Of a stretch of DNA of 62,034 nucleotides, positions 621-57,128 are shown piece by piece; within the stretch, counting starts at the first letter, position 1; each line of letters opens with the position of its first letter. The position numbers were made by a program, and so were the translations under genes. Under the pieces are notes generated by a model. The model did not search any database. It had not been told where the DNA came from and saw only the letters and a list, made by a program, of their open reading frames with translations. Origin of the DNA: a virus (Duplodnaviria > Caudoviricetes); the IMG/VR virus record IMGVR_UViG_3300036793_000104, positions 1-62,034 of that record. One strand, written 5' to 3'.

Positions 621-956
621 ATGAAGATGGTGGAATACGCCAGCTACCCGGATCCGAGCACCATTCCGCAACTGGAGACGGCCGCCGAGGCTGAGGCGTT
701 GTTGCAGGAGTTGGCGCAGACCAACGAATGGGTTTCCGTGTTCTGGGATCGGGGGTGGGGCGACGTTGGCACCCCCCTGGAGATCACGATCATTGTCGAT
801 GGCAACGGCCAGCAGCCAAAGGCGCTGATCAACGCTGAGATCTACAACGATCTCCGCGAGCGAGAGGTCATCGACCGGAACACACTGCAGACCTACAAGG
901 CGCGCAAGCTCCACGACTTCTGCAACCCAGACGACCGGTCACGCGTGAAGTCGTGA
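621..956 (+). CDS. Hypothetical protein (lower GC than neighbours)
   Basis: 111-aa ORF with GGAG RBS, preceded by an AT-rich tract; stop overlaps the next start. Confidence 0.7.
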   Translation: MKMVEYASYPDPSTIPQLETAAEAEALLQELAQTNEWVSVFWDRGWGDVGTPLEITIIVDGNGQQPKALINAEIYNDLREREVIDRNTLQTYKARKLHDFCNPDDRSRVKS

Positions 957-1954
957 ACGAGCTCGCAATCCCCTCCGTCTCCGCGGTCCAGCTGCCCGAG
1001 GCAGCCCCCTCTCCCGTCGCTACCTACCTTCAGTCACTCGGCTCCGTCGATTCCCGCCGCACGATGCAAGGCGCGCTCGACCAGATGGCCGCACTGCTCG
1101 CCGGCGACGGAGTCAAGGCTGACGCGATCCCGTGGCACGACCTGCGACCCGACCGCACGACATGGTTGAAAGCCGCACTACTGGAGCGGTACAAGCCGTC
1201 CACGGTCCGCAAGATGCTCGCCGCGCTCTCCGGGGTCCTGAAGCAGTGCTGGCGGGAAGGGCTGCTCGATGACGTCGCCTACCGCCGCCTGATCGACTGG
1301 GGTCAGGTGAAGGGGTCGGGGCTGACCGGTGCCAACGCCGGGCGTCACGTCACGGCAGCGGAGGTACGCGCCCTGTTCTGGGCGTGCGCCGACAGCCCGT
1401 ACCTCGCGACCGCGGCCCGCAACGCCTCCGTGCTAGGCGTCCTGTTCGGCGCCGGACTACGCCGGGCGGAGATCGTCGCGCTCGACCTGGAGCACTTCGA
1501 TCCGCAGACCGGCGAGACGACGGTGCGCGGTAAGGGCAACAAGATCCGCCTGTGCTACGTCACGGGCGGCGGCCGGGAGGCGGTGCAGGCATGGCTTCGG
1601 GTGCGCGGCCAGGAGCCCGGCCCGCTGTTCGTCGCGGTGAACAAGGTTGGCCGGCTGGATCCGGCGAGGCGTCGGCTGACGACGCAGGCGGTGTACGCGA
1701 TGCTGCAACGGCTGGCGCGGACGGCGAAGGTTGCCCCGTTCTCTCCGCACGATGGCCGCCGCACGTTCGCGGGCGATCTGCTGGACGCTGGCGTGGACGC
1801 TGCGACGGTGCAGAAGATGCTGGGGCACGCGTCGCTGGCAACGACGGGCATGTACGACCGGCGCGGCGAGCGAGCGAAGCAGCAGGCAGCAGGGCAGGTG
1901 CACATCCCGTATGTTCAACCGACGACGCTGCCGACGCTAGGTGAGGCGTCATGA
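953..1954 (+). CDS. XerC/D-like tyrosine recombinase
   Basis: Catalytic motifs GLRRAE (R), GKGNK (K), HDGRR (HxxR), LGHAS (H), TTGMYD (Y); core-binding domain present, no arm-binding domain. Confidence 0.93.
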   Translation: MNELAIPSVSAVQLPEAAPSPVATYLQSLGSVDSRRTMQGALDQMAALLAGDGVKADAIPWHDLRPDRTTWLKAALLERYKPSTVRKMLAALSGVLKQCWREGLLDDVAYRRLIDWGQVKGSGLTGANAGRHVTAAEVRALFWACADSPYLATAARNASVLGVLFGAGLRRAEIVALDLEHFDPQTGETTVRGKGNKIRLCYVTGGGREAVQAWLRVRGQEPGPLFVAVNKVGRLDPARRRLTTQAVYAMLQRLARTAKVAPFSPHDGRRTFAGDLLDAGVDAATVQKMLGHASLATTGMYDRRGERAKQQAAGQVHIPYVQPTTLPTLGEAS

Positions 1955-2003: not shown

Positions 2004-2333
2004 GTGAGCGAGAATGACGACCTGCGATGCACGGCAGTGTCGGACAGCGGAGAGCGGTGCGTTCTCGCGGCGAATCACTACGGCGACAACCCGACGCAGT
2101 ACCTGCACGCCCTCGACGGGACCAGCGACACAGGCGACGGTGTGCGCCGTTTCGGGGTGGGCGGACACATGCCGTCTACACCTCGCCTGACGCCGACCGG
2201 TGAAGAGATCGACGGACTCCTCCAACTGTGGAAGGTGCATCCTTCGCGGCCGACCGAGGGCAACGAGCTGGCCAACTACCGCAGGCGGGTGCGGAACGCC
2301 ATCCTCGCACTGCTGAAGGGAGAGGAGTCGTGA
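2004..2333 (+). CDS. Hypothetical protein
   Basis: GAGGAGG RBS, GTG start, overlaps next gene. Confidence 0.65.
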   Translation: MSENDDLRCTAVSDSGERCVLAANHYGDNPTQYLHALDGTSDTGDGVRRFGVGGHMPSTPRLTPTGEEIDGLLQLWKVHPSRPTEGNELANYRRRVRNAILALLKGEES

Positions 2334-2752
2334 CGATCGTCGAGTTCCTGACCGCGCGGTACACCGAGGCGGAGAAGGTGGCGCGTGCTGTGAAGCCGCT
2401 CGGCGAGGTCATCGTGATGGGTGGCGAGCGGCATCCGGAGACATTTGGCCATTCGCGCTACACAGTCGCCTCCGCAGACGGGTATCCCCGAACGCTGAGC
2501 GATCCTGAAGCGAGCAAGCACTTCGCCCGCTACGAGCCCGCCGAAGTACTGGCTGATCTGGCGGCGAAGCGGGCGATCCTGGACGAGTACGAGCGCATTG
2601 CCCTGTCGGCCGACACCTACCCGTGCGCGCCGAACTTCGCATCGCTGATCGCCATGGGCGGTTGCCTTAAGATCCTCGCCCTGCCGTTCGCCGATCACGA
2701 CGACTACGACCAGGCGTGGACAAGTGGCATCGTGAGCCACCATCGCGGGTAG
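2330..2752 (+). CDS. DUF6221-like actinophage protein
   Basis: EFLTARY.E...VLADLAAKRAILD...LKILALPFADH.DY...W pattern; GAGGAG RBS. Confidence 0.7.
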   Translation: MTIVEFLTARYTEAEKVARAVKPLGEVIVMGGERHPETFGHSRYTVASADGYPRTLSDPEASKHFARYEPAEVLADLAAKRAILDEYERIALSADTYPCAPNFASLIAMGGCLKILALPFADHDDYDQAWTSGIVSHHRG

Positions 2753-3191: not shown

Positions 3192-3998
3192 TCAGGTCAG
3201 GTCGACGCCGTAATGCAGCACGTACTCCGGGCCCGGCACGATGACCCGCGATGCCTCGACCGGCCGGTCCCCCACCAGGAACACGCGCACCACATCGAAC
3301 ACCGGGGCCGCGGTCTCCATGCGCAGCGCGCGCCGCTCCTCGTCCCGCGGCGCCCGGGTACGGACCTCCTCGTCCACCCACGTCGCCACCAGGCCGAGCG
3401 AGTGGAGCTCGGCGATCGTGCCGCCCGGCCATGGCTGCCGGCCAACCTCCGCCACCGGGGTGCCGCCTGCGATGTCCCACGGGATCGCCGACCGTTGCAG
3501 CTGCACCGGGCGGCCCTTCACGTACTTCGTGAAACGGCGCCGCAGAATGTCGGTGCCCTCTGGTACACGCAGCCGACGCGCATCCTCCGCTGTTGCTGGT
3601 TCCTTCGCGACCTCGACGTCGACCGTGTAGTCCTGCCAGCCGATCCCGTGGTCGGCGGTGAACGCTGACCGGAGCGGGTGGTCGCCTCCGCGACGCAGGA
3701 CCTCGAGTTCTTCGACGTACCGGGCGGCGGCCATGCGGCGTTGCATCGGCGCTTCGGCGACGCGGGTCGCGGTGCCTTGCCGGCGGACGACGAGTCCGTC
3801 GTTGATGAGTTGGTCGATGCCGCGGCGGATCTGCTCGCGGGACATGCCGGTTGCGTCTTTCATCTGCTTCTCGGAGGGGATCTCTTCGCCTGGGGTGAGG
3901 CGGCCGTCGTCGATCGCTTCTCGGATCCGCGCTGCGAGCTGCTGGTACTTGGGTAGCTGCGCGTGGGGGTCGATCAGCGCGGTGAGGTCGATCGGCAT
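3192..3998 (-). CDS. GntR/HutC-family (UTRA) repressor, KorSA/KorA-like (copy 1)
   Basis: wHTH PKYQQLAARIREAIDDGRL.PGEEIPSE...SREQIRRGI..L...GLV.RRQG..T.V followed by a UTRA-type domain; divergent from the transfer operon. Confidence 0.9.
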   Translation of the reverse strand: MPIDLTALIDPHAQLPKYQQLAARIREAIDDGRLTPGEEIPSEKQMKDATGMSREQIRRGIDQLINDGLVVRRQGTATRVAEAPMQRRMAAARYVEELEVLRRGGDHPLRSAFTADHGIGWQDYTVDVEVAKEPATAEDARRLRVPEGTDILRRRFTKYVKGRPVQLQRSAIPWDIAGGTPVAEVGRQPWPGGTIAELHSLGLVATWVDEEVRTRAPRDEERRALRMETAAPVFDVVRVFLVGDRPVEASRVIVPGPEYVLHYGVDLT

Positions 3999-4046
3999 GC
4001 ACAGATCGTAGCCGAGTGTCGCGACACACTGCGGGATGTTGACATG

Positions 4047-4075
4047 TTGCCTTGTCTAGACGAGTGACGTACCGT
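4047..4075 (+). promoter_or_regulatory. Promoter of the transfer operon with overlapping HutC-type operator
   Basis: TTGCCT(4047)-17 bp-TACCGT(4070); near-perfect palindrome CTTGTCTAGACGAG at 4051-4064. Confidence 0.7.
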
Positions 4076-4128
4076 TGTTGACTACGCGCGCGCAGTACGT
4101 GCGGGCGCGGGAGAGAACGGGGTCACGA

Positions 4129-4374
4129 ATGGCGAACGAGCAGAAGCTCAAGCTCACGCTGAAGAACGTCGTCACCGACCGCGAGTGGAAGTACAAGCCG
4201 ATGACCGTCACCGCAGACCCCGACGACCACCGGGCACTCCGCGGCCACATGGAAACCATGGCCCGCGACCTCGACCGACGCTCCGGCCGTGGCTGGCTCA
4301 GCGACTACACCGCCACCGTCGAGGTGGTCGACCAGTCCTGGCGGAAACCCTTCACCATCTCCGGTGGGAACTGA
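4129..4374 (+). CDS. Hypothetical protein, first gene of the transfer operon
   Basis: MANEQKL... ORF; TGATG coupling to next gene. Confidence 0.65.
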   Translation: MANEQKLKLTLKNVVTDREWKYKPMTVTADPDDHRALRGHMETMARDLDRRSGRGWLSDYTATVEVVDQSWRKPFTISGGN

Positions 4375-4661
4375 TGGCCGCCGACACCGTGACCCCTCTC
4401 GACCGTGGACTCGACCCGCACCAGGTGCGGCTGTCCCGCCTGCAACAGAAAGCGAAGAAGAGCCGCGCCGCCTTCGTCATCAAGTTCGCTCGCGCCCACT
4501 CCGCCCGCGAAAAGTTCGACATCGCCGCCGACTACATGCGCAGCATCACGAACAATCCAGGCGTCGAGCACAGCCAGGCGCAAGACGCTCTGGAGCAACT
4601 CGCGCGGCTGATGATCGATCGGACGGACCAGCTCGCCAAGACCATCCGGAGGATCCGATGA
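4374..4661 (+). CDS. Hypothetical protein (transfer operon)
   Basis: MAADTVTP... 95 aa; coupled to both neighbours. Confidence 0.7.
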   Translation: MAADTVTPLDRGLDPHQVRLSRLQQKAKKSRAAFVIKFARAHSAREKFDIAADYMRSITNNPGVEHSQAQDALEQLARLMIDRTDQLAKTIRRIR

Positions 4662-5035
4662 GCGCCCCGGAGCACGTTGCCTCAGTCACCCAACTCCCCG
4701 TCCGGGCGCTTGGTACCACTCCCCCGGTGCCGTCGCCTGCCGTGGCCGACGTGCCGCGGGAGCCGATCATCACCCTCGACGCGGTAAAGGACGCGATCCA
4801 GCCGCCTGACATCTGGTCCGACCGGCGACCGTCGCTGCGCGAGATCTGGCTGTACGGGGTGTACGGACGCTGGACCCGAGCGAAGGGTCCGGTCCGGATC
4901 GCCGGCGCGGTCTACGCCACGGTCATTGCTCTGCCGATCCACGCGCTCGCCTACATCTTCTGCTGGCTCGCTGAACGCCCCGCTCGATTCTTCGTCGTCG
5001 CGACCGTCGCGGCGTTGACCATGCTCGCTCTCTGA
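4658..5035 (+). CDS. Membrane protein, Spd/mobile-element transfer-like
   Basis: MSAPEHV...; two C-terminal hydrophobic segments; RPSLREIW and W...RP.R motifs; operon context. Confidence 0.6.
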   Translation: MSAPEHVASVTQLPVRALGTTPPVPSPAVADVPREPIITLDAVKDAIQPPDIWSDRRPSLREIWLYGVYGRWTRAKGPVRIAGAVYATVIALPIHALAYIFCWLAERPARFFVVATVAALTMLAL

Positions 5036-5046
5036 AAGGAAGTCAC

Positions 5047-5490
5047 ATGGGTCTCACGTTGGGAGGTATCGCAGCGATCTCCCTCGTCATTGCTATCGGC
5101 CTGATGGTCGTCGGGATCGCCAAGCAAGCCGTCGTCTACCTGATGCTGATCGCCGGACTCGGCCTGTCCGGTCTGATCGGCGTAGCGCTCGGCCGGATCA
5201 TGGGCAGCGCGGTGAAGGGCACCGCGACCGCTGGCGACGCCGTGCTCGGGGCAGGCGGCCTCGGCACGCTCGTGCTGTTCGCGTTCCTGTCCACCCTGCT
5301 GGTCCCCCGGCTCAAGCCGCGCAGTAACCCGCCGACCAAGTGGACGAAGTGGATCGCACTGTCCTACGGCTCGGTCATGGTCGCCACGGGCGGCATCGTC
5401 TCCGCGCTCATGGGTCTGCAACAGAACGTCGTGACGCAGGCCGCGAGCGCGCTCATGTCGGCCGCCACCGCGATCGTCGGAGGGTTCTGA
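5047..5490 (+). CDS. Multi-pass membrane protein, Spd-like
   Basis: GAAAGGA RBS; about four Gly/Ala-rich hydrophobic helices; operon context. Confidence 0.65.
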   Translation: MGLTLGGIAAISLVIAIGLMVVGIAKQAVVYLMLIAGLGLSGLIGVALGRIMGSAVKGTATAGDAVLGAGGLGTLVLFAFLSTLLVPRLKPRSNPPTKWTKWIALSYGSVMVATGGIVSALMGLQQNVVTQAASALMSAATAIVGGF

Positions 5491-5494
5491 CCTC

Positions 5495-6199
5495 ATGCTG
5501 AAGCGCGTCATTCTGTTCGGGGGTGCCCTCGTCGTCGCGGTGGCTGCGGGCTGGGCGTCGTTCGCGACGCTCGCAGCGCTGGCCAAGGCGACGCAGTGGC
5601 CGGGCGGGTACTTCCTGCTGCCGACCAGCATCGACGTGCTCGGCGCTCTCGCCTGCTACGTGTGGCTGACAAAGTCGTTCCCGCAGGACGCCCGCCGGTT
5701 CGCCCGGTGGACGACGCTGTTCGTGATCGCTGCGTCGGTGGTCGGCAACGGCATCGGGCACCTGGTGTCGTTCGGGAAGCTGACCCCGTCTGTCCTGTTG
5801 ATCGTCCTGGTCGGCGCCGTCCCGCCCTCGTCGCTGGCCGCCCTGATCCACCTGATCGTCCTGGCGACCTCGACCCCGGTCCCGGCGAAGCAGGTCCGGA
5901 AGACCGAGCCGGCCCGTCCTCAAGCCAAGACCGAGCCGCCGGCGGTTCCGGCCAAGCCGTCCTCGCCCCCGAAGAAGACGGCCGTCCCGAAGCCGAGTCC
6001 GGTGAAGTCCGGTCCGGAGTCCGGTCCGGTCGTGGATGACGTCCTGATGCAGCGTGCGCGGCATGCGGACCGGACCTACCAGGAGAAGAACAACGGCAGC
6101 CCGATCACGCGGGACGCGCTGAAGGCTGAGCTGAAGATCGGGACGGGCAAGGCGACTGACCTGCTCGACGCCCTGAAGAAGGAGAGGGAGGTGGCGTGA
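5495..6199 (+). CDS. SpdA-like / DUF2637 membrane protein with C-terminal HTH-like domain
   Basis: ASF..L..LA...LP.SID...SV.GN...AVPP..LA...HL transmembrane pattern, Pro/Lys linker, then ITRDALKAELKIGTGKATDLL. Confidence 0.75.
   Translation: MLKRVILFGGALVVAVAAGWASFATLAALAKATQWPGGYFLLPTSIDVLGALACYVWLTKSFPQDARRFARWTTLFVIAASVVGNGIGHLVSFGKLTPSVLLIVLVGAVPPSSLAALIHLIVLATSTPVPAKQVRKTEPARPQAKTEPPAVPAKPSSPPKKTAVPKPSPVKSGPESGPVVDDVLMQRARHADRTYQEKNNGSPITRDALKAELKIGTGKATDLLDALKKEREVA
5996..6029 (+). repeat. Tandem AGTCCGGTCCGG repeats inside the spdA-like gene
   Basis: AGTCCGGT at 5996; AGTCCGGTCCGG at 6006-6017 and 6018-6029. Confidence 0.9.
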
Positions 6200-7227
6200 T
6201 GGAGATCGTGATCATCGTCGCGATCTGGTCGGTCATCGTGAAGCGCGGTGTGGAGGACATCCTGCACACCGCGCGCGGCGGGACCCCGCACCGGTATGAG
6301 GCGGCGAGGGCGCGGCGTTCGTCAGGTGCCGCAGGGCGGTACTGGAGTACGTTGCGCGACGACACTTTCGAAGACCTGCTGCGGAAGCACAGCGAGCGGC
6401 GCGACCGTCGCCTCGCTGGGGGGTCGCCGAAGGTGGATCGTCCACGGGGTGCAGCGACCCAGTACTTCGCCGGCCTGTTGCAGGACGGGCGTCGCGGGGC
6501 GCGCCGGTCCTGGGACGGGGCGTGGGTGAGGCGGGACGAGAAGCGCCGCGCGAAGTCGACTCGTCCTCGTCCTGGTCAGGAGACGGTCCCGGGCGTAGTC
6601 GTCCCGAACGCTCCGTCTGAGGACGGGACGCAGGACGGTGCTCAGGACGAGAGCCAGGACCGTCCTCAGGACGACACGGGACCTGCCCCCCACGTCGTCC
6701 CGACCGAGGGCGGCAGGACGGACCTGCGATTCGGGGACGACCCGACCGACCCGACCGGGACGAAGCTGTGCCCGGAATGCGGCGGGACCGTCCTCGTCGA
6801 CGGCGAGATCTGCCTGTCCTGCCGCGACCGGCAAGAGCAACGCAACCAGCACTACGACAACCAGACCATCACCACCCCGGAGGGCGGCGAACAGGGCTCG
6901 CCCGACACCCAGGAAGGACCCACCACCATGACCGCAACCAACATCGAGGTCGTCGGACTCGACGGCGCGATCCGCTTCTGCGAGGACTCCGCCCGCGCGT
7001 ACCGCGCTCAGGCCCAGGCCATCGACAACACCCAGGGCAGCCTCCAGGCGGGCGGCGTGACGGGCATCGCTGTCGACTCGCTGACGCAGGCGATGGACCA
7101 GGCGAACGCAGCCGCGACCCAGATGGACGCGGCGGCTGCCGAGTTCGTGAAGCACAAGCAGGTCCAGGAGGCGTACAACGCGAACCAGGGTGCCGGCGAC
7201 CGGGACTTCATCCTCGCCGGGCAGTGA
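6196..7227 (+). CDS. Membrane-anchored protein with Zn-ribbon and helical C-terminal domain (TraA-like position before traB)
   Basis: N-terminal hydrophobic helix, Arg-rich region, CPEC..CLSC, Ala/Gln-rich C-terminus. Confidence 0.7.
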   Translation: MMEIVIIVAIWSVIVKRGVEDILHTARGGTPHRYEAARARRSSGAAGRYWSTLRDDTFEDLLRKHSERRDRRLAGGSPKVDRPRGAATQYFAGLLQDGRRGARRSWDGAWVRRDEKRRAKSTRPRPGQETVPGVVVPNAPSEDGTQDGAQDESQDRPQDDTGPAPHVVPTEGGRTDLRFGDDPTDPTGTKLCPECGGTVLVDGEICLSCRDRQEQRNQHYDNQTITTPEGGEQGSPDTQEGPTTMTATNIEVVGLDGAIRFCEDSARAYRAQAQAIDNTQGSLQAGGVTGIAVDSLTQAMDQANAAATQMDAAAAEFVKHKQVQEAYNANQGAGDRDFILAGQ

Positions 7228-7246
7228 GCGCACGTCGAGCGCCTCG

Positions 7247-7374
7247 GGTCCGGTTGGTCCGGTCCGGGGCGCTTGACATGTACCGAAAGTCTCGCGTACG
7301 CGCGGGCGCGCGCGAAGGCGCCTTGAAGGCGTCAGATCGAGTTCCGCCCGGACCGGACTCCACCGGACCGGACT
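7247..7374. repeat. Inverted clusters of the RGTCCGGTCCGG motif upstream of traB (candidate clt/sps-type site)
   Basis: GGTCCGGT at 7247; GGTCCGGTCCGG at 7256-7267; CCGGACCGGACT at 7348-7359 and 7363-7374. Confidence 0.8.
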
Positions 7375-7396
7375 TAGGTAGGGAGAGGAGCACTCG

Positions 7397-9421
7397 ATGA
7401 GTAGGAGGGCGACGAGGGAAGGGCAGCGGCTGGCCGAGGATGTGGCAGCCAAGGTGTATGCCGCGAGTGAGGCAGCGAGGCGGCGGCCACTGAGCCGGGC
7501 CGAGGCGAAGCAGATCAAGGCGGACCTCGCCCGGGAGCAGGAGGAGCGGCGAGCGACCAGCATGCGGGTGCTGTTGAAGCGGCAGTACGCGCCGTGGCTC
7601 GCCGGGCTCGGCGTGTTCGCGGTCGGCGCGGTCACCTGGCTGCTCAGCTGGCTCGCGATCAGTCCGATGCTGCCGGTCGCGGTTGCGGCGTTGACCGGGC
7701 TGTGTCTCGGCTGGGCGGCGTGGATGATGGGCCACCGGCATCAGCAGTGGCGACGCTCGCTGCACCGCGCCGCGATCATGTCTGCCGGCTGGCTGCTGAT
7801 GGCCGCGATCACAGGACCGTCCTGGTCTGTCGTCCTCGTGTGGGCCGTCCTCGTCGTCCTCTCGTCCTCGTCCTGGTGGAAGGCCAACCGGATCCCGTAC
7901 CCGACCGCGCCGTCCCCGCAGCCCGTCCCCGAGACGAAGCAGGCGTCGATCGAGATGCTGTGGGACGAACACCTCGGCGCGCCCGGCGCCGTCCTTCAAG
8001 GGAGCGTCCTCTCGGGACGGGACGATTCCAAGACGAACTGCGAGTCGTACGTGGTGAACCTTCGTCCTGGGAAGCAGACGATCACCGGGACGATCGCGCA
8101 TCTCGAGCTCATCTCGAGCGGGCTACATACTCCGGTGGAGAATCTCGTCCTCGAGCCGCATGAGGACCGCAGCCCGACCCACGCGAAGCTGACCGTTGTC
8201 CGGAAGTCGCCGATTGAGAAGACGATGGAGTACTCCGGTGCGCGGCTCGTCGGAGACCAGCGGCATGTGATCGAGGTCGGCCCGTACGGCGACGGTGACG
8301 GGTGGGCGCGGTGGCGGATGTGGGAGCCGGGCGAGCAGCCGATGACTGGCTCGTGGCTGTCGGGGTGCGTGATCGCCGGTACCGGGATCGGGAAGTCGCG
8401 GCTGATGGAGCTGCTGGCGGCCGGCTACATGGCGTCGGGTTCGGCGGTCGTGTGGTTCGTGGATCCGCAGGGCGGTGCGTCGAGCCCGGCGCTCCAGGAG
8501 TACGCCGACTGGTATGTGTCGTCCGAGGGGGTCGGTCGGATGCTCGGTGCGTTGGAGGCGATCGCGAAGGCGCGGGAGGCTCAGAACGCGCTGAAGAAGT
8601 GGTCGCGGTTCGACCCGACGCCGGAGCGTCCCGGGATCGTCGTGTTCCTCGACGAGTGCCATGTGACGATCGAGAAGTACGCGAAGCGGCTGGAGGACTT
8701 GGCGCGGAAGACGCAGAAGGTCGGGATCGGGTTCGTCGGCCTGACGCAGGGTGCGTCGCTGGAGTCGCTCGGGAAGGACATCCTGCGGGCGTGTCTGACG
8801 GCGAATCTGATTGTGATGAAGACAGGGTCGAACCAGACGAAGAACCTGCTGCCCGGTCTCACGGTGAACCCGGAGATGCTGCCGAAGATCGCCGGGTTCG
8901 GCTACACGATCGGCGACCCGAAGGACGGCACGCGGACGGCGCCGTTCCGGTCGGAGTATGTGGCGGAGCCGGAGCGATGGTTCCAGCAGTACCGGATGCC
9001 GAGGTTGGACGCGCTGTCGGCGAACGCCGCGGGCGACGTGTACCAACTGCGCAGCGAGGCCGCGGCCGAGGAGCAGGAGAAGAATCGTCGGTGGGTCGAG
9101 CAGCTGGAGTCTGGTGAGGGCGTCCAGCCCACGCTGGACGAGGCCGACGACGACGTGCAGGACGAGCCGGCGCAGGGTGGCGCGTTCCAGGTGGCGGCGT
9201 TCCCGTCCGCTCCCCGCCCGCAGGACAAGCCTCCGGCGCAGCGGATCATCGCGCTGGTCGCGCAGGGTGTGACGCGGACGAAGGAGATCGAGGAGGCGAT
9301 CGGGTTGAAGTCGTCGCAGACTGCGGCTCTGCTGCGGAAGCTGGTGGACGAGGAGCACCTGGAGCAGCCGACGCGTGGCGTGTACGCGATCGCGGGCAGC
9401 GCGTCGGTCCCGGAGCGGTGA
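7397..9421 (+). CDS. traB: TraB-like FtsK/SpoIIIE DNA translocase
   Basis: About four N-terminal TM helices, Walker A AGTGIGKS, FVDPQGG, Walker B VVFLDECH, C-terminal winged helix (RIIALV..G..RTKEIEEAIGL......LLRKLV....LEQP.RGVY). This matches the actinomycete TraB architecture. Confidence 0.85.
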   Translation: MSRRATREGQRLAEDVAAKVYAASEAARRRPLSRAEAKQIKADLAREQEERRATSMRVLLKRQYAPWLAGLGVFAVGAVTWLLSWLAISPMLPVAVAALTGLCLGWAAWMMGHRHQQWRRSLHRAAIMSAGWLLMAAITGPSWSVVLVWAVLVVLSSSSWWKANRIPYPTAPSPQPVPETKQASIEMLWDEHLGAPGAVLQGSVLSGRDDSKTNCESYVVNLRPGKQTITGTIAHLELISSGLHTPVENLVLEPHEDRSPTHAKLTVVRKSPIEKTMEYSGARLVGDQRHVIEVGPYGDGDGWARWRMWEPGEQPMTGSWLSGCVIAGTGIGKSRLMELLAAGYMASGSAVVWFVDPQGGASSPALQEYADWYVSSEGVGRMLGALEAIAKAREAQNALKKWSRFDPTPERPGIVVFLDECHVTIEKYAKRLEDLARKTQKVGIGFVGLTQGASLESLGKDILRACLTANLIVMKTGSNQTKNLLPGLTVNPEMLPKIAGFGYTIGDPKDGTRTAPFRSEYVAEPERWFQQYRMPRLDALSANAAGDVYQLRSEAAAEEQEKNRRWVEQLESGEGVQPTLDEADDDVQDEPAQGGAFQVAAFPSAPRPQDKPPAQRIIALVAQGVTRTKEIEEAIGLKSSQTAALLRKLVDEEHLEQPTRGVYAIAGSASVPER

Positions 9422-9424
9422 GAT

Positions 9425-9469
9425 TTGTCTAGGGCGAGATTGACTTGATTGTCTAGGGCGGGGTAGACT
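9425..9469 (+). promoter_or_regulatory. hicAB promoter with two operator-like inverted repeats
   Basis: TTGACT(9440)-18 bp-TAGACT(9464), 6 bp before ATG; GTCTA-N8-TTGAC (9427-9444) and GTCTA-N8-TAGAC (9451-9468). Confidence 0.7.
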
Positions 9470-9475
9470 ACTCTC

Positions 9476-9688
9476 ATGAAGCGGCGGGAAGTGATCAAGC
9501 GGATCAGCAAGCAGGCCAAGGTCGACGGCGTTGCCTTCGACCTGAAGCGCGAAGGCGCAAACCACAGCGTCTACGACGTCGGTGGCTGCATGATCCCGAT
9601 CCCCCGCCACAACGAGATCGGTGACAGGACAGCCGAAGGCATCTTCAAAGAGTGCGAGCCCGTACTAGGAAAGGACTGGTGGCGATGA
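9476..9688 (+). CDS. hicA: HicA-family toxin
   Basis: 70 aa; REGANH motif and IPIPRHNEI. Confidence 0.85.
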   Translation: MKRREVIKRISKQAKVDGVAFDLKREGANHSVYDVGGCMIPIPRHNEIGDRTAEGIFKECEPVLGKDWWR

Positions 9689-10056
9689 GCACCTACCACG
9701 CGAACGTCGAACGCGACGGCAAGTTCTGGCTCATCCACGTTCCGGAGGTGGACCGAGTCACCCAGGCTCGCCACGTCCGCGAGATCGAACGCATGGCCCG
9801 CGATCTCGTCGCAACAATGGAGGACGTCGAACCTGGCTCGTTCGATCTCGAGGTGTCGATCGACCTGCCGAAGTACGCTCAAGACCACCTGAAGGCATCC
9901 CGCGCCTACCGCCATGAAGCTCTCGAGGCGAACCGCCGGTCGGCCGAGGAAGCTCGGATCGCGGCGCGCAGCCTGGCCGAAGATCTGCCGCTGCGTGACG
10001 TGGCCGAACTGCTCGGCGTCTCACACCAGCGGGTCCACCAGCTCGTCAACTCCTGA
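9685..10056 (+). CDS. hicB: HicB-family antitoxin
   Basis: Y.A.VERDGKFWLIHVPEV...TQAR...E.E.MARDL plus C-terminal HTH LRDVAELLGVSHQRVHQL; ATGA overlap with hicA. Confidence 0.85.
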   Translation: MSTYHANVERDGKFWLIHVPEVDRVTQARHVREIERMARDLVATMEDVEPGSFDLEVSIDLPKYAQDHLKASRAYRHEALEANRRSAEEARIAARSLAEDLPLRDVAELLGVSHQRVHQLVNS

Positions 10057-10066
10057 CCCCAGACGC

Positions 10067-10111
10067 AACAAAGAGCCCCCCACCTCCGGAGAGGTGGGGG
10101 GCGCTCTTGTT
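10067..10111. terminator. Bidirectional intrinsic terminator between the accessory arm and the late operon
   Basis: AAGAGCCCCCCACCTC-CGGA-GAGGTGGGGGGCGCTCTT with A- and T-rich flanks, between convergent genes. Confidence 0.85.
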
Positions 10112-10301: not shown

Positions 10302-10598
10302 TCAGGCCGCGCCGGGATCAGCCGGGGTAGGCGCGGCCGGAGCCGGATCGGCCGGCTTGGAGTCGGCTGCGAGCCACGGCGCGTACCGGTGCAGGAAGTC
10401 GTTCACCTGCGGCAACGCCAGCACCCGGGTGACACCGGCGGCGATACCGAGCCCGGTCGCGGCCCAACCGGTAGCGACAGAAGGGTCATGGTGGGTGGCG
10501 GCCTGGTAGACGAGCGGCGACATGGCCGCGGCACCGACGATGACAGCGAACGCGGTACGGGCGGTGGCCCGCCACGGATACTTCGACTGGGTAGACAT
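10302..10598 (-). CDS. Holin
   Basis: TQ.KYPWRAT.RT...AAGVTRVLALP.VN.FL....PWLAA actinophage holin pattern; two TMs; follows the endolysin. Confidence 0.8.
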   Translation of the reverse strand: MSTQSKYPWRATARTAFAVIVGAAAMSPLVYQAATHHDPSVATGWAATGLGIAAGVTRVLALPQVNDFLHRYAPWLAADSKPADPAPAAPTPADPGAA

Positions 10599-10624: not shown

Positions 10625-11575
10625 TCACTGGCCCGGGTCCGCCATCGTCGCGGGCTGGTTGTCCAGCGCAGCGGCGACATCGGCGGTCAGGTTGGCCTGG
10701 AGCTTGTCCAGCTCCGCCTGCCGCTCCGTGTCGGTGGTGGAGTCGGTCTGCCGGGTGAAGGCGTTCACGGCGACGGCGTACTTCTGGACGATCTTGCCGA
10801 CCTCGGTGATGACGCGGTTCGAGTGCTGCCGGGTGTTGTCCTGGATCTGGATCGTGCACGCCTTCTGGTAGGCGAGGATGCTCTGTACGTCGGCCATGGT
10901 GAGTTCTCCTGTCGATGTGCCGGGTGTGCTGTTGCTGCCCCGCGTCTTGAGGTCGGCGAGGGTCATGTTCGCGATGTTCGCGTCGCGGTTGCCGCCGCCG
11001 AACGACTGGCTGAACTGCCAGATATCCGGCCCGGATCCCCAGTTGTTCTGCGTCGGGTAGCCGGTGATGGCGTCCGGCCACGCGGTCTTGCCGTCGTAGG
11101 CGGACGGGTACTCCGGGTACCACCAGGCGGCGTAGTGCGACCGCAGGTTCAGGGTCGAGTTGTTGCGGATGTAGCCGCTGCCGCAGTACAGGAACGGTTT
11201 CCGGCCGGTGGCCTTGGTGACGATGTCCGCCCACTTGGCCAACCAATCGCGCACCGTCAGCATCGGCAGGTTCAGCTGGTTCGCCTCCATGTCCATGCAG
11301 GCGATGTCCTCCGGCCCGAAGCCGCCGGCAGCGTTGACGTAGGCCAGGAACGCGTTCGCGTCGTCGGTCGGGTCGTTGTCCGGGTGCGCGAAGTGGTACC
11401 CGACCCGCACGAGACCGGCGGCCTTCAGGTTCCGCCAGTTCGCCAGAAACTCGCTGTCCTTGCCGCCTTCAGCCTCGGTGACCTTCGCGGCACCCCAGGT
11501 GAGCCCGTACTGCTTCTTCAGCGCACCCCAGTCCACCGTCCCCTGGTAGTGGCTGACGTCGATACCTCTCAACAT
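10625..11575 (-). CDS. Endolysin, GH25 muramidase
   Basis: GIDVSHYQG, K.TE, GYHFA, DME, IWQFS, D.N motifs. Confidence 0.93.
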   Translation of the reverse strand: MLRGIDVSHYQGTVDWGALKKQYGLTWGAAKVTEAEGGKDSEFLANWRNLKAAGLVRVGYHFAHPDNDPTDDANAFLAYVNAAGGFGPEDIACMDMEANQLNLPMLTVRDWLAKWADIVTKATGRKPFLYCGSGYIRNNSTLNLRSHYAAWWYPEYPSAYDGKTAWPDAITGYPTQNNWGSGPDIWQFSQSFGGGNRDANIANMTLADLKTRGSNSTPGTSTGELTMADVQSILAYQKACTIQIQDNTRQHSNRVITEVGKIVQKYAVAVNAFTRQTDSTTDTERQAELDKLQANLTADVAAALDNQPATMADPGQ

Positions 11576-11584
11576 GTCCTGACC

Positions 11585-12370
11585 TCATTTCCTGGCTTGC
11601 GGCAGAACCGCCGGCGTGCAGGCGGCGTTCGTGGTTTGGGTGGTGTTGTCGGTGTAGGTCACGACCCAGACGCCGGACTGGTCACAGGCCATCGACTGGA
11701 TCCCGCGGCCGTCCGCACCGTTCGTGCCGTTGGTCCCATCGGTTCCGTTGGTGCCGTCCTTGCCGTCGGCCCCGTTCGTTCCGTCCTTGCCGTCCTGGCC
11801 GGCTGTGCCGAGGCACGGCTTGGAGTCCTGCGCGCAGTACGCCGCCAGGGCCGTCTTCGCGGCGGTGAGCAGGTCGGCATCTGTGACCGGTGGAGCGTCC
11901 TTGCCGTCGTCGCCCTTCGTGCCCGGCTTACCGGTCGTGCCGGCAGGCCCGACACACTTCCCGTTCGCGCAGTACGCGGCCACAGCAGATACCGCGGCGG
12001 CATGTACCTGTGTCGCGGACGGTGAGACGCCGTCCTTCGGTTTCGGCACCAGGTTCGCGGCGACCCGTGCGACCTGGTTGACCTCGGCCGCCGTGATCGT
12101 GACGTGCTGCTTGGACAGTTCCTCGGTGACGATCGTGCGCACGTCGTCGGCGCCGATCCCCTTGATCGTTGGAGGCGCAACGGTCGGCGTACCACCGAGT
12201 GCCTTCACCTGCGCAGCCAGCGCGGCACTGTCGCGCTTGGACTGCTCGAGCTGGTTCCAGAAGAACGCCCCACCAGCTACGACCGCGGCGAGTACAGCGG
12301 AGCACAGCAACGCGAGGATCACCGCGGTCAGGTCATGTCGGCGCCGTTGTGACGGTGACTCAGACATCAA
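11585..12370 (-). CDS. Membrane-anchored collagen-like protein of the lysis region
   Basis: N-terminal TM, AL..QV..LGGTP, G-X-Y repeats, paired Cys. Confidence 0.8.
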   Translation of the reverse strand: MMSESPSQRRRHDLTAVILALLCSAVLAAVVAGGAFFWNQLEQSKRDSAALAAQVKALGGTPTVAPPTIKGIGADDVRTIVTEELSKQHVTITAAEVNQVARVAANLVPKPKDGVSPSATQVHAAAVSAVAAYCANGKCVGPAGTTGKPGTKGDDGKDAPPVTDADLLTAAKTALAAYCAQDSKPCLGTAGQDGKDGTNGADGKDGTNGTDGTNGTNGADGRGIQSMACDQSGVWVVTYTDNTTQTTNAACTPAVLPQARK

Positions 12371-40474: not shown

Positions 40475-41107
40475 TCACGCCGCATCCCCCGTCTCAGGCT
40501 CGACCAGCGACCGGAAGTGCTTCGCCAACATCCCCGGCACCCGAGCCTGCTGCTCCTCCGACAGCCCCAACTCAGCCACCGCAGCCAACACGACCGCGCC
40601 CATCTGCTCCCCCGCCGTCCGGTTGATCAACGTGATCCGAGCCTCGATCGCCTTCGCGTCCAGGCCCAACTGGATCATCCGCGCCAACGTCCGCTCCGCC
40701 CGATCCAACGCCCGCTCATACGCCGCGACATACGCCCGGACCTGCTCCCCCATCGCCATCAACTGCTTGCCGTCAGCCTCGTCATCGCTCGCACCGAACG
40801 CCGCGATCCTGAGCGTCCAGTCATCCAGCGTCTCCACCCGCTCCCGCAACCGATCCTTGAACGCCAACACCTCCCCCGCGTTATCCGCATACGCCCCGAC
40901 CGGGTCCGACACCGGCGCCCAGCCCTGCCGGCCGATCTCCCGAGCGACCTGCTGCTCGAGCACACGCTCGGCCGCCTTGGCCTTGACCTGCGGCGCCGAG
41001 CCACCATGCGTGTAACACACGTCACCGCCCACGATGGGTCGCTTGCGGCAGCGTTCTCCGGTCTGGGTGCTGGTGGCCTTGCAGCGGGGGATCTCGAGCT
41101 CGGTCAT
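40475..41107 (-). CDS. HGGxSTG-type Zn-finger protein, probable terminase small subunit
   Basis: RC.A....G.RC.......VC..HGG.APQVKAKA followed by a helical oligomerisation-like region. Confidence 0.65.
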   Translation of the reverse strand: MTELEIPRCKATSTQTGERCRKRPIVGGDVCYTHGGSAPQVKAKAAERVLEQQVAREIGRQGWAPVSDPVGAYADNAGEVLAFKDRLRERVETLDDWTLRIAAFGASDDEADGKQLMAMGEQVRAYVAAYERALDRAERTLARMIQLGLDAKAIEARITLINRTAGEQMGAVVLAAVAELGLSEEQQARVPGMLAKHFRSLVEPETGDAA

Positions 41108-53592: not shown

Positions 53593-53790
53593 TCAGGACG
53601 CGACGGCGTGGTCGCGGAGGTACTCGTCGAGCGCCGTGCGGGTGATGCGGTAGTTCGGGCGGCCGGAGGTCGCGATGTTGATCGCGGCGAGGTCGCCGCG
53701 GCGGATGAAGCGGCGGACGTGCTCGACCGACACGGCGAGCTCGTCGGCGACGTCGGCGGCGGTGAGCATCCGCTTCGTCGCGGTGGTCAT
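53593..53790 (-). CDS. Excisionase-like HTH protein
   Basis: LT..DVA.EL.VS...VRR.I..G.L.A.......YRI....L..Y. Confidence 0.85.
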   Translation of the reverse strand: MTTATKRMLTAADVADELAVSVEHVRRFIRRGDLAAINIATSGRPNYRITRTALDEYLRDHAVAS

Positions 53791-54095
53791 GCCGCCTTCT
53801 TCGGTCCGGCCGCGCTGGACTTGAGTCCAGTGGCGGTTGACTCGTTGGGCTCGAAAAGCGTGCCGGGGATGAGCCCGAGGGCCTCCTCGATGAGCTTCGC
53901 GATGTCCTTGGTGCAGGTGTTCCGCTCGCCGGACTCGAGCTGCCAGATGAACTGGCGGCTGCAGGTGGCATACCTGCCGAGACCTGCTTGTGAGAGGCCC
54001 TTCTGCTCGCGGTAGGCCCTCATCAGGTCCCGCTTGCGGAGTCTCATCCATCGCCCCCTGGCTCGTTGACGCCGGCGTGTGTGTGCAGGAATCAC
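53787..54095 (-). CDS. Cro-like XRE HTH protein
   Basis: GLSQ..L.....CSRQFI.QLE.G.R.TC....A..IE.ALG; GTG54095 with GAGGAGG RBS (alternative ATG54047). Confidence 0.85.
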   Translation of the reverse strand: MIPAHTRRRQRARGRWMRLRKRDLMRAYREQKGLSQAGLGRYATCSRQFIWQLESGERNTCTKDIAKLIEEALGLIPGTLFEPNESTATGLKSSAAGPKKAA

Positions 54096-54111
54096 TCTGT
54101 CGCCTCCTCTT

Positions 54112-54271
54112 GTGCTTGTCAAGCACCGTTGGACTAAAGGTCGCATGCCACTTGACGACGTGTCAAGCTGCCCGCCCAGGCAATTTCCCGTCTGCGCACG
54201 GCGTGTGCGGCTCTCTGCCGTCTCGGATTGCTTGACAGACTTGGTGGCAGTTCGGTCCATTAGTGCTTGAC
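54112..54271. promoter_or_regulatory. Immunity-region operators/promoters
   Basis: GTGCTTG-T-CAAGCAC (54112-54126), CTTGAC-N5-GTCAAG (54151-54167), CTTGAC at 54231 and 54266. Confidence 0.65.
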
Positions 54272-54325
54272 CGATCGATTCGGTCGCGCTGTACACGCGC
54301 GAAACGGCAGAGGGAGCCTGAGGAC

Positions 54326-54883
54326 ATGCACGCACTGCGGCGCTACCTGCTACAGGAGCTGGATTCCCGCGGTTGGCAGCCTCGAGATCTCGTGGTGAGG
54401 TCGGGGCTTAGCAAGCAGCGGGTAAGCCAGCTACTCAACGACGACCGAGAGGTCATGCCTCAGCTCCCCCGCACGTCGACTCTGGGAGCCTTGGCGCAGG
54501 CGTTCAATGTGCCGTTGACCCACATCACGTCGGTCGCGATCGAGGCGCTCGGGGTGCCGGGGGTGCTCGGGCCGAAGGTCGTTCATCAGGTCCGGGAAGC
54601 GGATGACGAGACTCTGCTGCGGGAGCTGCTGCGGAGAGCCATCGACCGAGATGAGGAGCAACCGCCGGCGCCGGTCGCGATCAACGGCCGGAGGGACCCT
54701 GAGGTCTTGGCTGCCGAGCTCGATGCAGCTGTGAAGGATCTGGAGGAGTGGGTCGCGTTGGATCTTGGCGAGCCGGGCGAGGCGAAGCGGGCGGAGTTGC
54801 AGGCGCGTGTGGATGCGCTGCGGGCGCAGCTAGTTTCGTCACGGTCGGCAACAGTTTCGGACAGAAATGTATCCGGATCGTGA
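54326..54883 (+). CDS. CI-like immunity repressor
   Basis: N-terminal XRE HTH (GW..RDL..RSGLSKQRVSQLL), divergent from cro and upstream of int. Confidence 0.82.
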   Translation: MHALRRYLLQELDSRGWQPRDLVVRSGLSKQRVSQLLNDDREVMPQLPRTSTLGALAQAFNVPLTHITSVAIEALGVPGVLGPKVVHQVREADDETLLRELLRRAIDRDEEQPPAPVAINGRRDPEVLAAELDAAVKDLEEWVALDLGEPGEAKRAELQARVDALRAQLVSSRSATVSDRNVSGS

Positions 54884-55483: not shown

Positions 55484-56629
55484 ATGGGCCACGTTCAGGA
55501 TCTGTGGATGAAGAAGGGTCCGGACGGGAAGAAGACTGTCCGGTCGGCTCGGTACGGCCTGGGCAAGCGGTGGCAGGCGAGGTGGATCGATCCGCTCGGC
55601 GACGAGCAGACGAAGATGTTCACCGCGCAGGATGCCGCGAGGGCTCACGTCACGAGGATGGAAGCGAGTGTCCATTCGGGTAGTTACGTCGACCCGAAGA
55701 AGGGCAAGGTTGCGTTCCGGGAGTACGCCGAACGGTGGCGCGCTGACCAGCTCCATCATCGCCGCTCGACCGCGGTGCAGGCCGAGTCCAGGTTGCGGCT
55801 GCATGTCTATCCGATGCTCGGTGCGAAGCCGATCGCGTCGATCCGGCGGCCCCAGGTGCAGGCGTGTGTCAACGAGATGGCGAAGACGCTTGCCCCGACG
55901 ACCGTCGAGGTGGTGTACGGGTACATCGCGACGGTGATGAAGTCGGCGGTGCTCGACGAGGTCATCGGGAAGACGCCGTGCGTGAAGATCAACCTGCCGG
56001 AGATCAGCCGGAAGAAGGTTGTCCCGTTGACGGTCGAGCAGGTCGAGCGGATCTGCCGGAAGGTGCCGGCCAGGTACCGGGCTGCTGTGATCGTGTGTGC
56101 GGCGACCGGGCTGCGGCAGGGCGAGTTGTTCGGTCTGAAGATGGAGCACGTCGAGGGGGCGTGCGACAGCGTGGTGTTGCGGGTCGAGGAGCAGGTCGAC
56201 GGCGGCGCACCGAAGACGGAGTCAGGTGAACGCAGGGTCGCGATCGGGCTGGTCGCGTCGAGGGCGCTGTGGAGGCATCTCGCGACTTACCGGGAGGGGA
56301 TCGGCGGGTACGTGTTCTCGACGCCGCGGCGGACCCGGATCTCCAGGTCGACGGCCGCGTTCTTGTGGAACGCGGCGACCGAGGGCATGGGGTTGAAGGA
56401 CCGGTCGGGGTGGCACGAGTTGCGGCATCATCATGCGTCGCTGCTGATCTCGGCTGGCCTGTCTGTGGTGGCTGTTGCGGAGCGGTTGGGGCACAAGGAC
56501 GGGACGGAGACGCTGCGGACGTACGGGCATCTGTGGCCGACGGATCATGAGCGGGCTGTGGCTGCGGTGGATGCTGCGCTGGCCGGGTTGAGCATGTCTG
56601 ACGGAACGGTGACGGAACGCGCAGCTTAA
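55484..56629 (+). CDS. int: Tyrosine integrase
   Basis: N-terminal arm-binding RWQARW.DP.G, TGLRQGE, PKT, HELRH, LGH, LRTYGH. Confidence 0.95.
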   Translation: MGHVQDLWMKKGPDGKKTVRSARYGLGKRWQARWIDPLGDEQTKMFTAQDAARAHVTRMEASVHSGSYVDPKKGKVAFREYAERWRADQLHHRRSTAVQAESRLRLHVYPMLGAKPIASIRRPQVQACVNEMAKTLAPTTVEVVYGYIATVMKSAVLDEVIGKTPCVKINLPEISRKKVVPLTVEQVERICRKVPARYRAAVIVCAATGLRQGELFGLKMEHVEGACDSVVLRVEEQVDGGAPKTESGERRVAIGLVASRALWRHLATYREGIGGYVFSTPRRTRISRSTAAFLWNAATEGMGLKDRSGWHELRHHHASLLISAGLSVVAVAERLGHKDGTETLRTYGHLWPTDHERAVAAVDAALAGLSMSDGTVTERAA

Positions 56630-56833
56630 ACGTGCAGGTCAGGGGCTTGTGGGACTGTGTCCGGCTTACATGACCGACCCGTTCCTTTTGCACGCTCGGC
56701 ACGCTGCAATGTGGCCGTGACCAGCCTGAACGCCATGCGACGGGACACTACTGGACGCGATAGCGCGTGATGGCGCGGACGGAATTTACGCGGAACGTCC
56801 GAGTCGTGACGGAACCGGGACGGAACACGGAAC
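56599..56833. other. attP region with arm-type repeats
   Basis: ACGGAAC-core direct repeats at 56601, 56612, 56809, 56820, 56827 and variants at 56779 and 56790, flanking a ~160-bp interval right after int. Confidence 0.7.
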
Positions 56834-56841
56834 GGGTCAGG

Positions 56842-56870
56842 TTGCCTTGTTGCAACAAGGCACCTACTCT
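56842..56870 (+). promoter_or_regulatory. Promoter with perfect 20-bp palindromic operator
   Basis: TTGCCT-17 bp-TACTCT, 6 bp before ATG56877; TGCCTTGTTGCAACAAGGCA at 56843-56862. Confidence 0.8.
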
Positions 56871-56876
56871 CGACCC

Positions 56877-57128
56877 ATGGGCCACCACGAACCGCGCACC
56901 GCAGCCGATGAGATCGCTGAGGCGAAGGCGAAGCTTGATGCCGCGTTCGCCGAGATGGAGACCTGGCGTACCCACCTGGACATCATGGCGAAGAACCCGC
57001 AGGACCGCGAGGCGGTGGCCTTCCAGGCTCGCCGCTCGGCCGGGATCGTCGCGGCCCTGATCGCGGAAGCCGAGTCCGGTACGCGCGTGGCCGAGCGGCT
57101 ACAGGCTCAGCTGACCGTCGTCTCGTAG
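56877..57128 (+). CDS. Small helical protein, probably leaderless
   Basis: 83-aa ORF downstream of the promoter; overlaps the 3' end of GntR copy 2. Confidence 0.65.
   Translation: MGHHEPRTAADEIAEAKAKLDAAFAEMETWRTHLDIMAKNPQDREAVAFQARRSAGIVAALIAEAESGTRVAERLQAQLTVVS

Follow-up and report, generated by a model that had tools for sequence, protein, structure and literature searches.

This study analyzed the virus record IMGVR_UViG_3300036793_000104, all 62,034 bases of which form the window, for a short repeat that precedes a gene resembling the traB transfer genes of Streptomyces plasmids. The 12-mer RGTCCGGTCCGG was found in six exact copies, all of them in a transfer module in front of this traB-like gene (hereafter traB), and the copies in the gap immediately before traB belong to a layout that recurs in every close relative compared. 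On the basis of these findings, we tentatively propose, with a confidence that falls somewhat short of even, that the repeats are a clt-like set of TraB recognition repeats lying over the terminator, promoter, and leader region of traB. Under this proposal, the C-terminal winged helix of the phage's own TraB-like translocase would recognize the repeat units in cis, and TraB hexamers would load on the units of the excised circular phage DNA. The loaded TraB would then pump double-stranded DNA into a neighboring compartment or cell, and occupied sites would also damp traB expression. We infer both TraB as the binder and transfer as the outcome of binding.

Distribution of the repeat word and the TraB-like gene

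An exact search located RGTCCGGTCCGG at 4886, 6006, 6018, and 7256 on the plus strand and at 7348 and 7363 on the minus strand, in agreement with the earlier note; 0.05 copies were expected, and none of 100 dinucleotide shuffles reached six. Because the window is the entire record, this count is genome-wide. All six copies fall within 4886-7374, a 2.5-kb interval that makes up 4% of the genome, so the word is not evenly spread, and the claimed confinement of the cluster to the transfer module is borne out. A control pattern obtained by reading RGTCCGGTCCGG backwards gave no match. The two 8-base partial copies described earlier, AGTCCGGT at 5996 and GGTCCGGT at 7247, are likewise present in the sequence. 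The description of two intergenic clusters held only in part: the copies at 7256, 7348, and 7363 are intergenic, whereas those at 4886, 6006, and 6018 lie inside coding sequence.

The 8-mer GTCCGGTC was not enriched over the whole record (14 copies versus 8.9 expected; 7 of 100 shuffles reached 14), and 9 of the 14 copies lie within 4887-7373 (binomial P 4.5e-10). Two Kribbella genomes that carry relatives contain this 8-mer 25 times in 9.0 Mb and 32 times in 7.6 Mb, rates from which 0.17-0.26 copies per 62 kb would be expected. An unbiased scan of all 8-mers across the whole record identified GACCGGAC as the sole 8-mer with at least four copies in 200 bases. The repeat scans revealed no competing short-repeat cluster at or past the 3' end of traB, and the second promoter region of the module (3999-4129) contained no copy of the repeat word. 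The repeat word itself is not palindromic.

According to sections of two reports, the C-termini of TraB proteins recognize 8-base direct repeats in clt (PMC4170104, PMC4447253), and a portion of a third describes known clt loci as several direct repeats of 5-9 bases together with inverted repeats beside traB (PMC3583192). The gap before traB agrees with a description of clt as several such direct repeats, often accompanied by inverted ones, over approximately 50-200 bases: RGTCCGGT/ACCGGACT units occur twice in the forward direction (7247 and 7256) and twice in reverse (7352 and 7367), and together they span 128 bases. The word is also rare elsewhere on the element, and the repeats adjoin traB, on its 5' side. 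Judged against these descriptions and the plasmid control below, the gap resembles a clt in the length and number of its units, in the span that they cover, and in uniqueness. For GACCCGGA, given in the earlier note and presumed to be the clt word of pSVH1, a full-text literature search returned unrelated papers only.

The claim that the repeats directly precede a TraB-type gene was upheld by a profile match, an alignment, a fold match, and the winged helix of a structural model. The gene product matched the NCBIfam profile plasmid_TraB (E 1.8e-14) and, from its membrane region into the motor, aligned at 25% identity over 445 residues (E 2e-14) with the annotated TraB of a 14-kb Streptomyces plasmid. 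Walker motifs are present as GTGIGKS and VVFLDE. A Foldseek search ranked TcpA first (6.7e-11), followed by the FtsK motor structures 6t8g and 2ius (~2e-9). The AlphaFold model, with a mean predicted local distance difference test (pLDDT) score of 76.5, comprises membrane helices at residues 65-163, a RecA-type core, and a winged helix of the helix-helix-helix-hairpin type at residues 613-665, for which the block-mean pLDDT was 84-91; the Pfam family AbiEi_4 matched weakly at residues 624-666. A tblastn search with this TraB detected 68 actinomycete plasmid records at 23-34% identity and, among 50,697 phage records, one weak partial match only. As judged from these comparisons and the model, the protein is a distant relative of TraB, not an equivalog, that combines a motor of the FtsK type with a winged helix at its C-terminus.

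The gap upstream of traB and the copies within coding sequence

The anatomy of the 169-base gap between the gene for a 343-residue protein and traB was read from an alignment of five relatives whose TraB proteins are 59-70% identical, and the intergenic repeat sites proposed earlier proved to be conserved in all five. The conserved core of the gap has its forward units (RGTCCGGT...), one or two in number, directly upstream of the -35 box and two reverse units (ACCGGACT and CCGGACCGGACT, 15 bases apart) just before the ribosome-binding site, an arrangement in which the two sets point toward each other from either side of the traB promoter. The distance from the forward unit to the reverse unit nearest traB was nearly constant, at 105-109 bases in the five relatives. 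The reverse pair is separated by 6 bases from the ribosome-binding site GGGAGAGGAG (7381-7390) and by 22 bases from the ATG. Its core, ACCGGACT-YC-ACCGGACCGGACT, is invariant in all five relatives, as are 23 consecutive bases before the ribosome-binding site, in a gap with a mean column identity of 75%.

The traB promoter was placed by conservation, because the consensus promoter scan did not call the site at 7273. The sequence TACGCG lies 17-18 bases downstream of TTGACA, within the palindrome CGCGTACGCG. In the record, TTGACATG occurs only at 4039 and 7273, and the 15-mer pattern GTACGYGCGGGCGCG only at 4095 and 7296; the 62 kb thus contain two copies of each, one per promoter region of the module (4039-4110 and 7273-7310). 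The sharing of both words by the two regions suggests a common regulator or promoter type.

An unlikely but serious alternative to TraB recognition is that the repeats form the operator of another regulator (the C-terminal tail of the DUF2637 protein, the 343-residue ribbon protein, or a small module protein), which would repress or time traB in the manner of a kil-kor system. The position of the units, which flank the -35 box and stop short of the ribosome-binding site at a near-constant spacing, agrees with such a role, and part of PMC4447253 describes plasmid traB genes as toxic if unregulated and as repressed by GntR regulators. Proteins that bind repeats in their own genes have precedents in SpdA2 with its sps sites (a section of PMC4170104) and in RepAM (PMC2440964), and cluster A (Table 1) similarly lies inside the DUF2637 gene; moreover, the motif core is constant among relatives while the predicted TraB recognition helix varies. 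Cluster A is, however, not conserved in relatives, and the other module promoter region lacks the motif altogether. A separate conserved palindrome covers the -10 region of traB. As for the GntR proteins, the reading of the repeats as their operator was rejected: the units are direct repeats rather than the inverted half-sites used by HutC-type dimers, and better candidate operators for both regulators lie elsewhere. Plausible ones are GTCTAGAC at 4054, TTGTTGCAACAA at 56847 and 57990, and GTACGYGCGGGCGCG at its two positions. The first of these, in the gap beside the HutC-type regulator at 3192-3998, is the likely operator of that regulator; the second is a palindrome on both sides of the regulator at 57107-57931, a candidate operator differing from GTCTAGAC.

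The forward copy in the gap is part of a strong hairpin, whose 3' arm, TCCGG(T/G)CCGGGGCG, is the 12-mer at 7256-7267 and whose 5' arm and loop contain the partial copy GGTCCGGT. RNA folding yielded energies of -37.8 to -40 kcal/mol (z -4.6) for this hairpin and of -30 to -40 kcal/mol for those of the five close relatives, with z of -3.9 to -8.4 in the three that were scored against shuffles. The hairpin was retained in all five, with differing left arms, an invariant right arm, and 11 G.U pairs in total, and the minus-strand hairpin was 7-11 kcal/mol weaker in three of the five. The differing left arms, the G.U pairs, and the weaker minus strand point to an RNA hairpin on the sense strand. 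Relatives with TraB identities of 30-42% also carry a hairpin at the same spot, with unrelated stem sequences. A GC-rich hairpin after a stop codon is thus present; it has no U tract (only UU before GACA), and the terminator scan made no call at 7234-7277. This second role of the forward unit, in the 3' arm of a hairpin that would act like a terminator in the RNA of the upstream genes, is the better supported one.

These results bear on another alternative, which we consider improbable, namely that the intergenic copies act in RNA: the forward copy would supply the 3' arm of a terminator or stabilizer hairpin for the upstream genes, and the complementary reverse copies in the leader could pair with it in read-through transcripts and alter traB translation or transcript processing. 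The strong hairpins of the five relatives and of the distant ones, which also follow the stop codon of the upstream gene, favor this alternative. RNAalifold, moreover, paired the forward copy with the reverse copy nearest traB through 12 invariant pairs and paired the bases before the hairpin with the ribosome-binding site through two compensated pairs. However, the 12 long-range pairs never vary and therefore provide no evidence of covariation, and the local hairpin, which lacks a U tract, would form first. From its presumed start, the traB leader alone showed neither excess stability (z -0.32 to +1.41 in the five relatives) nor a shared fold, and a structured traB leader was rejected for its lack of excess stability; no known RNA family in Rfam reached its gathering score anywhere in the record. 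A role in RNA also leaves unexplained the coding copies, which occur in both orientations, and their codon bias.

Three of the six exact copies lie in coding sequence. The copy at 4886 encodes K-G-P-V-R with the rare GGT codon for glycine, and cluster A encodes KSGPESGPV; the two 12-mers of cluster A look like a 12-base tandem duplication, as judged from their sequence. None of these copies is conserved in position: the position of the copy at 4886 is not kept in relatives, and for the coding copies in general the relative L007 retains a one-mismatch version of one, whereas L008 has none there.

Such copies could in principle be a functionless by-product of GC-rich Ser-Gly-Pro linker coding, of 12-base slippage duplication, and of a terminator stem in which the word recurs by chance, an explanation to which we assign hardly any probability. 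The tandem duplication in a proline-rich linker favors this explanation, and comparable cases exist: a CCGGACC cluster upstream of traB in the distant relative L042 was rejected as a candidate site because it merely encodes Gly-Pro in the upstream gene, and the repeats inside the DUF2637 gene of the control plasmid described below were rejected as coding repeats for R-E-Q. The invariant run before the ribosome-binding site stands against it, and the excess of copies persisted relative to shuffles, to host genomes, and to a synonymous null. In the last of these, the seven module genes were resampled with the codon usage of the record; 0.053 copies were expected, three were observed, and none of 5000 resamplings reached three, with a Poisson P of 0.0013 when the tandem pair was counted once. 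Of the Gly-Pro pairs, 6 of 7 within the module versus 6 of 25 outside it had the rare glycine codons GGT or GGA. The same concentration also recurs in three other genomes. The 65.5-kb record G102 has four of its five exact 11-mers within 525 bases before traB, one of them reverse and inside the upstream gene; G103 has its single exact 11-mer within the same distance before traB; and the 62.5-kb contig G002:C254 has all four of its copies within 1.07 kb before traB. The synonymous null and the codon bias together indicate that the coding copies are more than a by-product of the encoded peptides, yet they are variable extras and not the conserved core.

Table 1. Positions of the repeat copies, of the elements around them, and of other features in the window
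Feature	Position	Strand	Remarks
Exact 12-mer	4886-4897	+	In small membrane-protein gene 4658-5035
Cluster A: AGTCCGGT, then two tandem exact 12-mers	5996-6029	+	Pro-rich linker of DUF2637 gene
11-base core with one mismatch, GCGGACCGGAC	6065-6075	-	Coding; 35 bases past cluster A
Strong hairpin	7234-7277	+	Directly past stop codon of 6196-7227
TTGACA, -35-like box	7273-7278	+	Abuts hairpin; TTGACAT invariant in 5 of 5 relatives
Palindrome CGCGTACGCG and 15-mer GTACGCGCGGGCGCG	7293-7310		Over -10 region; candidate operator distinct from the repeats
Two exact reverse 12-mers	7348-7374	-	15 bases start to start
traB-like gene, 674 residues	7397-9421	+	Past the 169-base gap
Second tyrosine recombinase	953-1954		
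DUF6221 gene	2228-2752		
GntR/UTRA (HutC-type) regulator	3192-3998	-	Divergent from operon starting at 4129
Tightly packed operon	4129-4374, 4374-4661, 4658-5035, 5047-5490, 5495-6199, 6196-7227	+	
DUF2637 membrane protein, 234 residues	5495-6199	+	C-terminal helical tail
343-residue protein	6196-7227	+	Cys4 ribbon, acidic low-complexity middle, conserved C-terminal helical domain
HicA/HicB toxin-antitoxin	9476-9688, 9652-10056		Promoter-like site 9440-9469
Integrase	55484-56629		attP region directly after
GntR/UTRA regulator	57107-57931	-	Faces small plus-strand genes

The transfer module within the phage genome

Bases 1-169 of the record recur at 61866-62034 with one mismatch (position 102, G versus A), and the record, classed as linear, therefore closes into a circle of approximately 61,865 bases; the open frames cut off at its two ends match in phase. 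An identical traB is carried by a contig of 62,006 bases, and 62,006 minus 141 is also 61,865. From 10625 to 53439, the minus strand encodes tailed-phage functions: an endolysin, minor tail proteins, a tape measure protein, a major tail protein, a capsid/protease, a portal, the large terminase, two DNA methyltransferases, and RecET. Around the end of the integrase gene, TGACGGAAC occurs at 56599, 56610, and 56807 (region 56599-56815) and resembles arm-type integrase sites. The plasmid-like remainder of the record comprises the two GntR/UTRA blocks, the second tyrosine recombinase, the DUF6221 gene, the operon, traB, and hicA/hicB.

The whole stretch is collinear with positions ~41,067-100,848 of a contig from a Kribbella qitaiheensis isolate (G001:C77), at approximately 66-82% nucleotide identity, and the collinearity breaks at 56622-56735, just past the integrase. 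A 30-base direct repeat flanks the isolate prophage; its copies, at 41002-41031 and 100895-100924 of that contig and ~59.9 kb apart, agree at 29 of 30 positions, and the regulators, operon genes, and traB lie between these att repeats. Because the whole unit is integrated between the att repeats in the isolate, the transfer module belongs to the phage genome itself: the GntR/DUF2637/traB module is carried by a temperate tailed phage of ~62 kb, which integrates as one unit in the Kribbella isolate. The contig G002:C254, at 62,477 bases, is a circular permutation of the same gene order. The module order and the phage genes are maintained at ~70% nucleotide identity in the isolate prophage and in this second ~62-kb contig, and the combination is thus neither a one-off nor an assembly chimera.

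The longest contig measures 58-66 kb in 9 of the 57 further homologue clusters of this TraB. Of 101 genomes sampled from the family, 3 contained a TraB relative; of 401 from the order, 8 did so at E<=1e-40. A megablast search of positions 4000-10000 against phage records gave no match. No partition genes were seen on the phage. No tRNA was found in the record or at the ends of the isolate prophage, and a tRNA-linked att site was rejected on this ground. A separate actinomycete integrative and conjugative element (AICE) nested in the phage was not favored, because integration of the entire unit proceeds through its attP and the integrase at 55484-56629 and because a divergent second recombinase occupies the same place in the isolate prophage.

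This second recombinase and the DUF6221 gene lie between the two regulator blocks, and the recombinase at that place in the isolate prophage is shorter and 30% identical; the enzyme could serve multimer resolution or a second integration system. Within the operon, the DUF2637 assignment rests on a Pfam score of 23.3 bits against a cut-off of 22.8. The 343-residue protein had no family match in the profile searches and is not similar to plasmid TraA. The C-terminal end of its gene precedes traB in nearly all relatives with upstream DNA, down to 30% TraB identity (L014, L023, L026-L028, L036, and L042-L047), and the two genes therefore form a conserved pair. Downstream of traB, a two-way terminator of 12 pairs at 10075-10102 separates the module from the lysis genes; the HicA/HicB pair was not found in the isolate prophage.

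Other repeats were observed apart from the transfer module. In the small-gene region past the regulator at 57107-57931, GGTCGCTGAC occurs three times in 240 bases (58690-58929); these copies could be iterons of a replication origin, although no replication protein was recognized around them. Three copies of GCTTGACA at 54117-54230 are located between divergent helix-turn-helix genes (53787-54335, minus strand; 54263-54883, plus strand), in a region that, from its arrangement, looks like a phage immunity switch. Repeats with a 9-base period at 11710-11957 belong to a collagen-like minor tail gene that encodes Gly-X-Y.

Distant relatives, plasmid control, and comparison with known systems

In addition to the five close relatives, all of which have the motif, the DNA of relatives at 30-42% TraB identity was compared. 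One of these (L023) has two unrelated 15-base direct repeats (GAAGAAAGCGACACC, 1820-1864) just before the traB ribosome-binding site, a suggestive but single case, and another (L031) has five copies of TGAGACAA before traB (1769-1912). As a positive control, the same k-mer scan was applied to L041, a pWTY27-like 14-kb Streptomyces anulatus plasmid whose module order (GntR, DUF2637 ... traA traB) matches that of the phage. The scan recovered the published pWTY27 clt repeat TGACACC in five copies across the traB 3' end (10351-10442) and also found the sps palindrome in three copies (10687-10716) in a stretch without a listed gene. A BLASTP comparison detected no similarity between the 234-residue DUF2637 protein of the phage and that of this plasmid. 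In the part of PMC3583192 that concerns pWTY27, clt begins 16 bases before the end of the tra gene and continues for 159 bases past it. The position of clt varies among plasmids; according to the same report, clt of pIJ101 lies near korB.

The earlier note had also raised the option of SpdA sites, that is, of stability sites of the SpdA/sps type at which a spread or stability protein binds repeats in or near its own gene and positions the DNA in the mycelium; we regard this as very improbable. A section of PMC4170104 describes SpdA proteins as 117-163 residues long with an N-terminal DNA-binding region and gives their site as a 12-base palindrome, CGTCACGTGACG, in one to three copies; SpdA2 of pIJ101 binds its 12-base repeat at two to three copies in its own gene. 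Cluster A, inside a spread-type membrane-protein gene, recalls that arrangement. Nevertheless, the 234-residue protein belongs to DUF2637 and not to SpdA, searches with family profiles found no SpdA-like protein, and CGTCACGTGACG has one near-match, at chance level. Furthermore, the motif lacks the palindromic form of sps, relatives have not conserved cluster A, and DUF2637 and sps occur separately in the control plasmid. The SpdA option was accordingly dropped.

Several findings weigh against the proposal that TraB recognizes the repeats. The forward intergenic copy is at least partly explained by the RNA hairpin, and two of the three coding copies amount to one tandem duplication. The only exact copy in the isolate prophage is the intergenic one nearest traB, which indicates that the extra coding copies are not a constant feature, and the 8-mer is not enriched in its module. 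The repeats stand 5' of traB, versus the 3' end in the pWTY27 clt and in the control plasmid. The protein scored 53.2 bits against an NCBIfam plasmid_TraB equivalog cut-off of 800. The predicted recognition helix varies among relatives (SQTAALLRK versus SQLHDVLKT) while the motif core stays constant, and the relatives at 30-42% TraB identity lack the motif before traB, so co-variation of motif and winged helix could not be shown.

A wider proposal, which we hold to be rather doubtful, is that a lineage of ~62-kb temperate phages in Kribbella-like mycelial actinomycetes spreads without virions: TraB would grip the excised circle at the repeats and, in the manner of a conjugative plasmid, move it as double-stranded DNA to neighboring compartments or other mycelia, and the same sites would set the level of traB. 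On this view, a clt would for the first time have been described on a virus and across a traB promoter. The more surprising part is the context, a conserved lineage of temperate tailed phages with a complete plasmid-type module for double-stranded DNA transfer. If TraB binds the repeats, the phage has not only the pump of a plasmid transfer system but also its handle, and the prophage could move between cells or along hyphae without particles. The line between phages and conjugative elements in actinomycetes would then be blurred, and a 169-base fragment would be defined for testing. If another protein or an RNA reads the site, it would still define the control of a toxic translocase gene inside a phage. 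A described phage-borne TraB with a cis site was not found in the literature searched, a limited collection.

KOPS (FtsK orienting polar sequences) and SRS (SpoIIIE recognition sequences) are spread over the whole chromosome with strand bias. Like the repeats proposed here to be read by TraB, they are 8-base oriented words read by an FtsK-family winged helix, and the fold of the phage motor matches FtsK; unlike them, every exact copy on the phage is local, and the many dispersed copies and strand polarity of a guide word were not seen. In parC of plasmid R1, centromere repeats flank the promoter of their own partition operon and, besides being the site in cis on which a DNA-moving machine acts, serve as an autoregulatory operator. 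The phage repeats share with parC the location on both sides of a promoter; this is an analogy only, and the machinery is unrelated. The SpdA2/sps repeats of pIJ101 and the RepAM repeats of pMEA300 are, like the coding copies, short protein-binding repeats embedded in the coding sequence of mobile elements; they differ in that other protein families are involved, that sps is palindromic and absent from the phage, and that the conserved copies of the phage are intergenic.

Actinomycete phages and phage-plasmids that carry transfer or spread genes of the plasmid type have been described. SpdB2 homologues occur on the actinophages phiC31 and VWB and were suggested, in a part of PMC4447253, to help phage DNA spread, and a portion of PMC3583192 cites the plasmid-phage pZL12 as an element whose transfer requires a major tra gene (pZL12 is also cited in a portion of PMC4487206). 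The present phage is similar to pZL12, phiC31, and VWB in this respect and differs from them in that it integrates through an integrase and attP, carries a full traB with a GntR/DUF2637 module, and has no visible partition genes.

The closest parallels are the clt loci of the Streptomyces plasmids pSVH1, pJV1, pIJ101, and pWTY27. Like these, the gap contains several copies of a 7-9-base word within approximately 130 bases, in direct and inverted orientation; the adjoining gene encodes an FtsK-like translocase that is anchored in the membrane and ends in a winged helix, and the word is confined to this spot. The module order (GntR, DUF2637 ... traB) also matches that of the pWTY27-like plasmid. 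The phage site differs in that it lies 5' of traB, against the 3' end for the characterized clt of pWTY27, in that it has fewer perfect units, and in that it overlaps the promoter, the leader, and the upstream hairpin. The phage TraB is 23-34% identical to its plasmid counterparts, and the carrier of this candidate clt is a tailed temperate phage of ~62 kb rather than a plasmid or an AICE.

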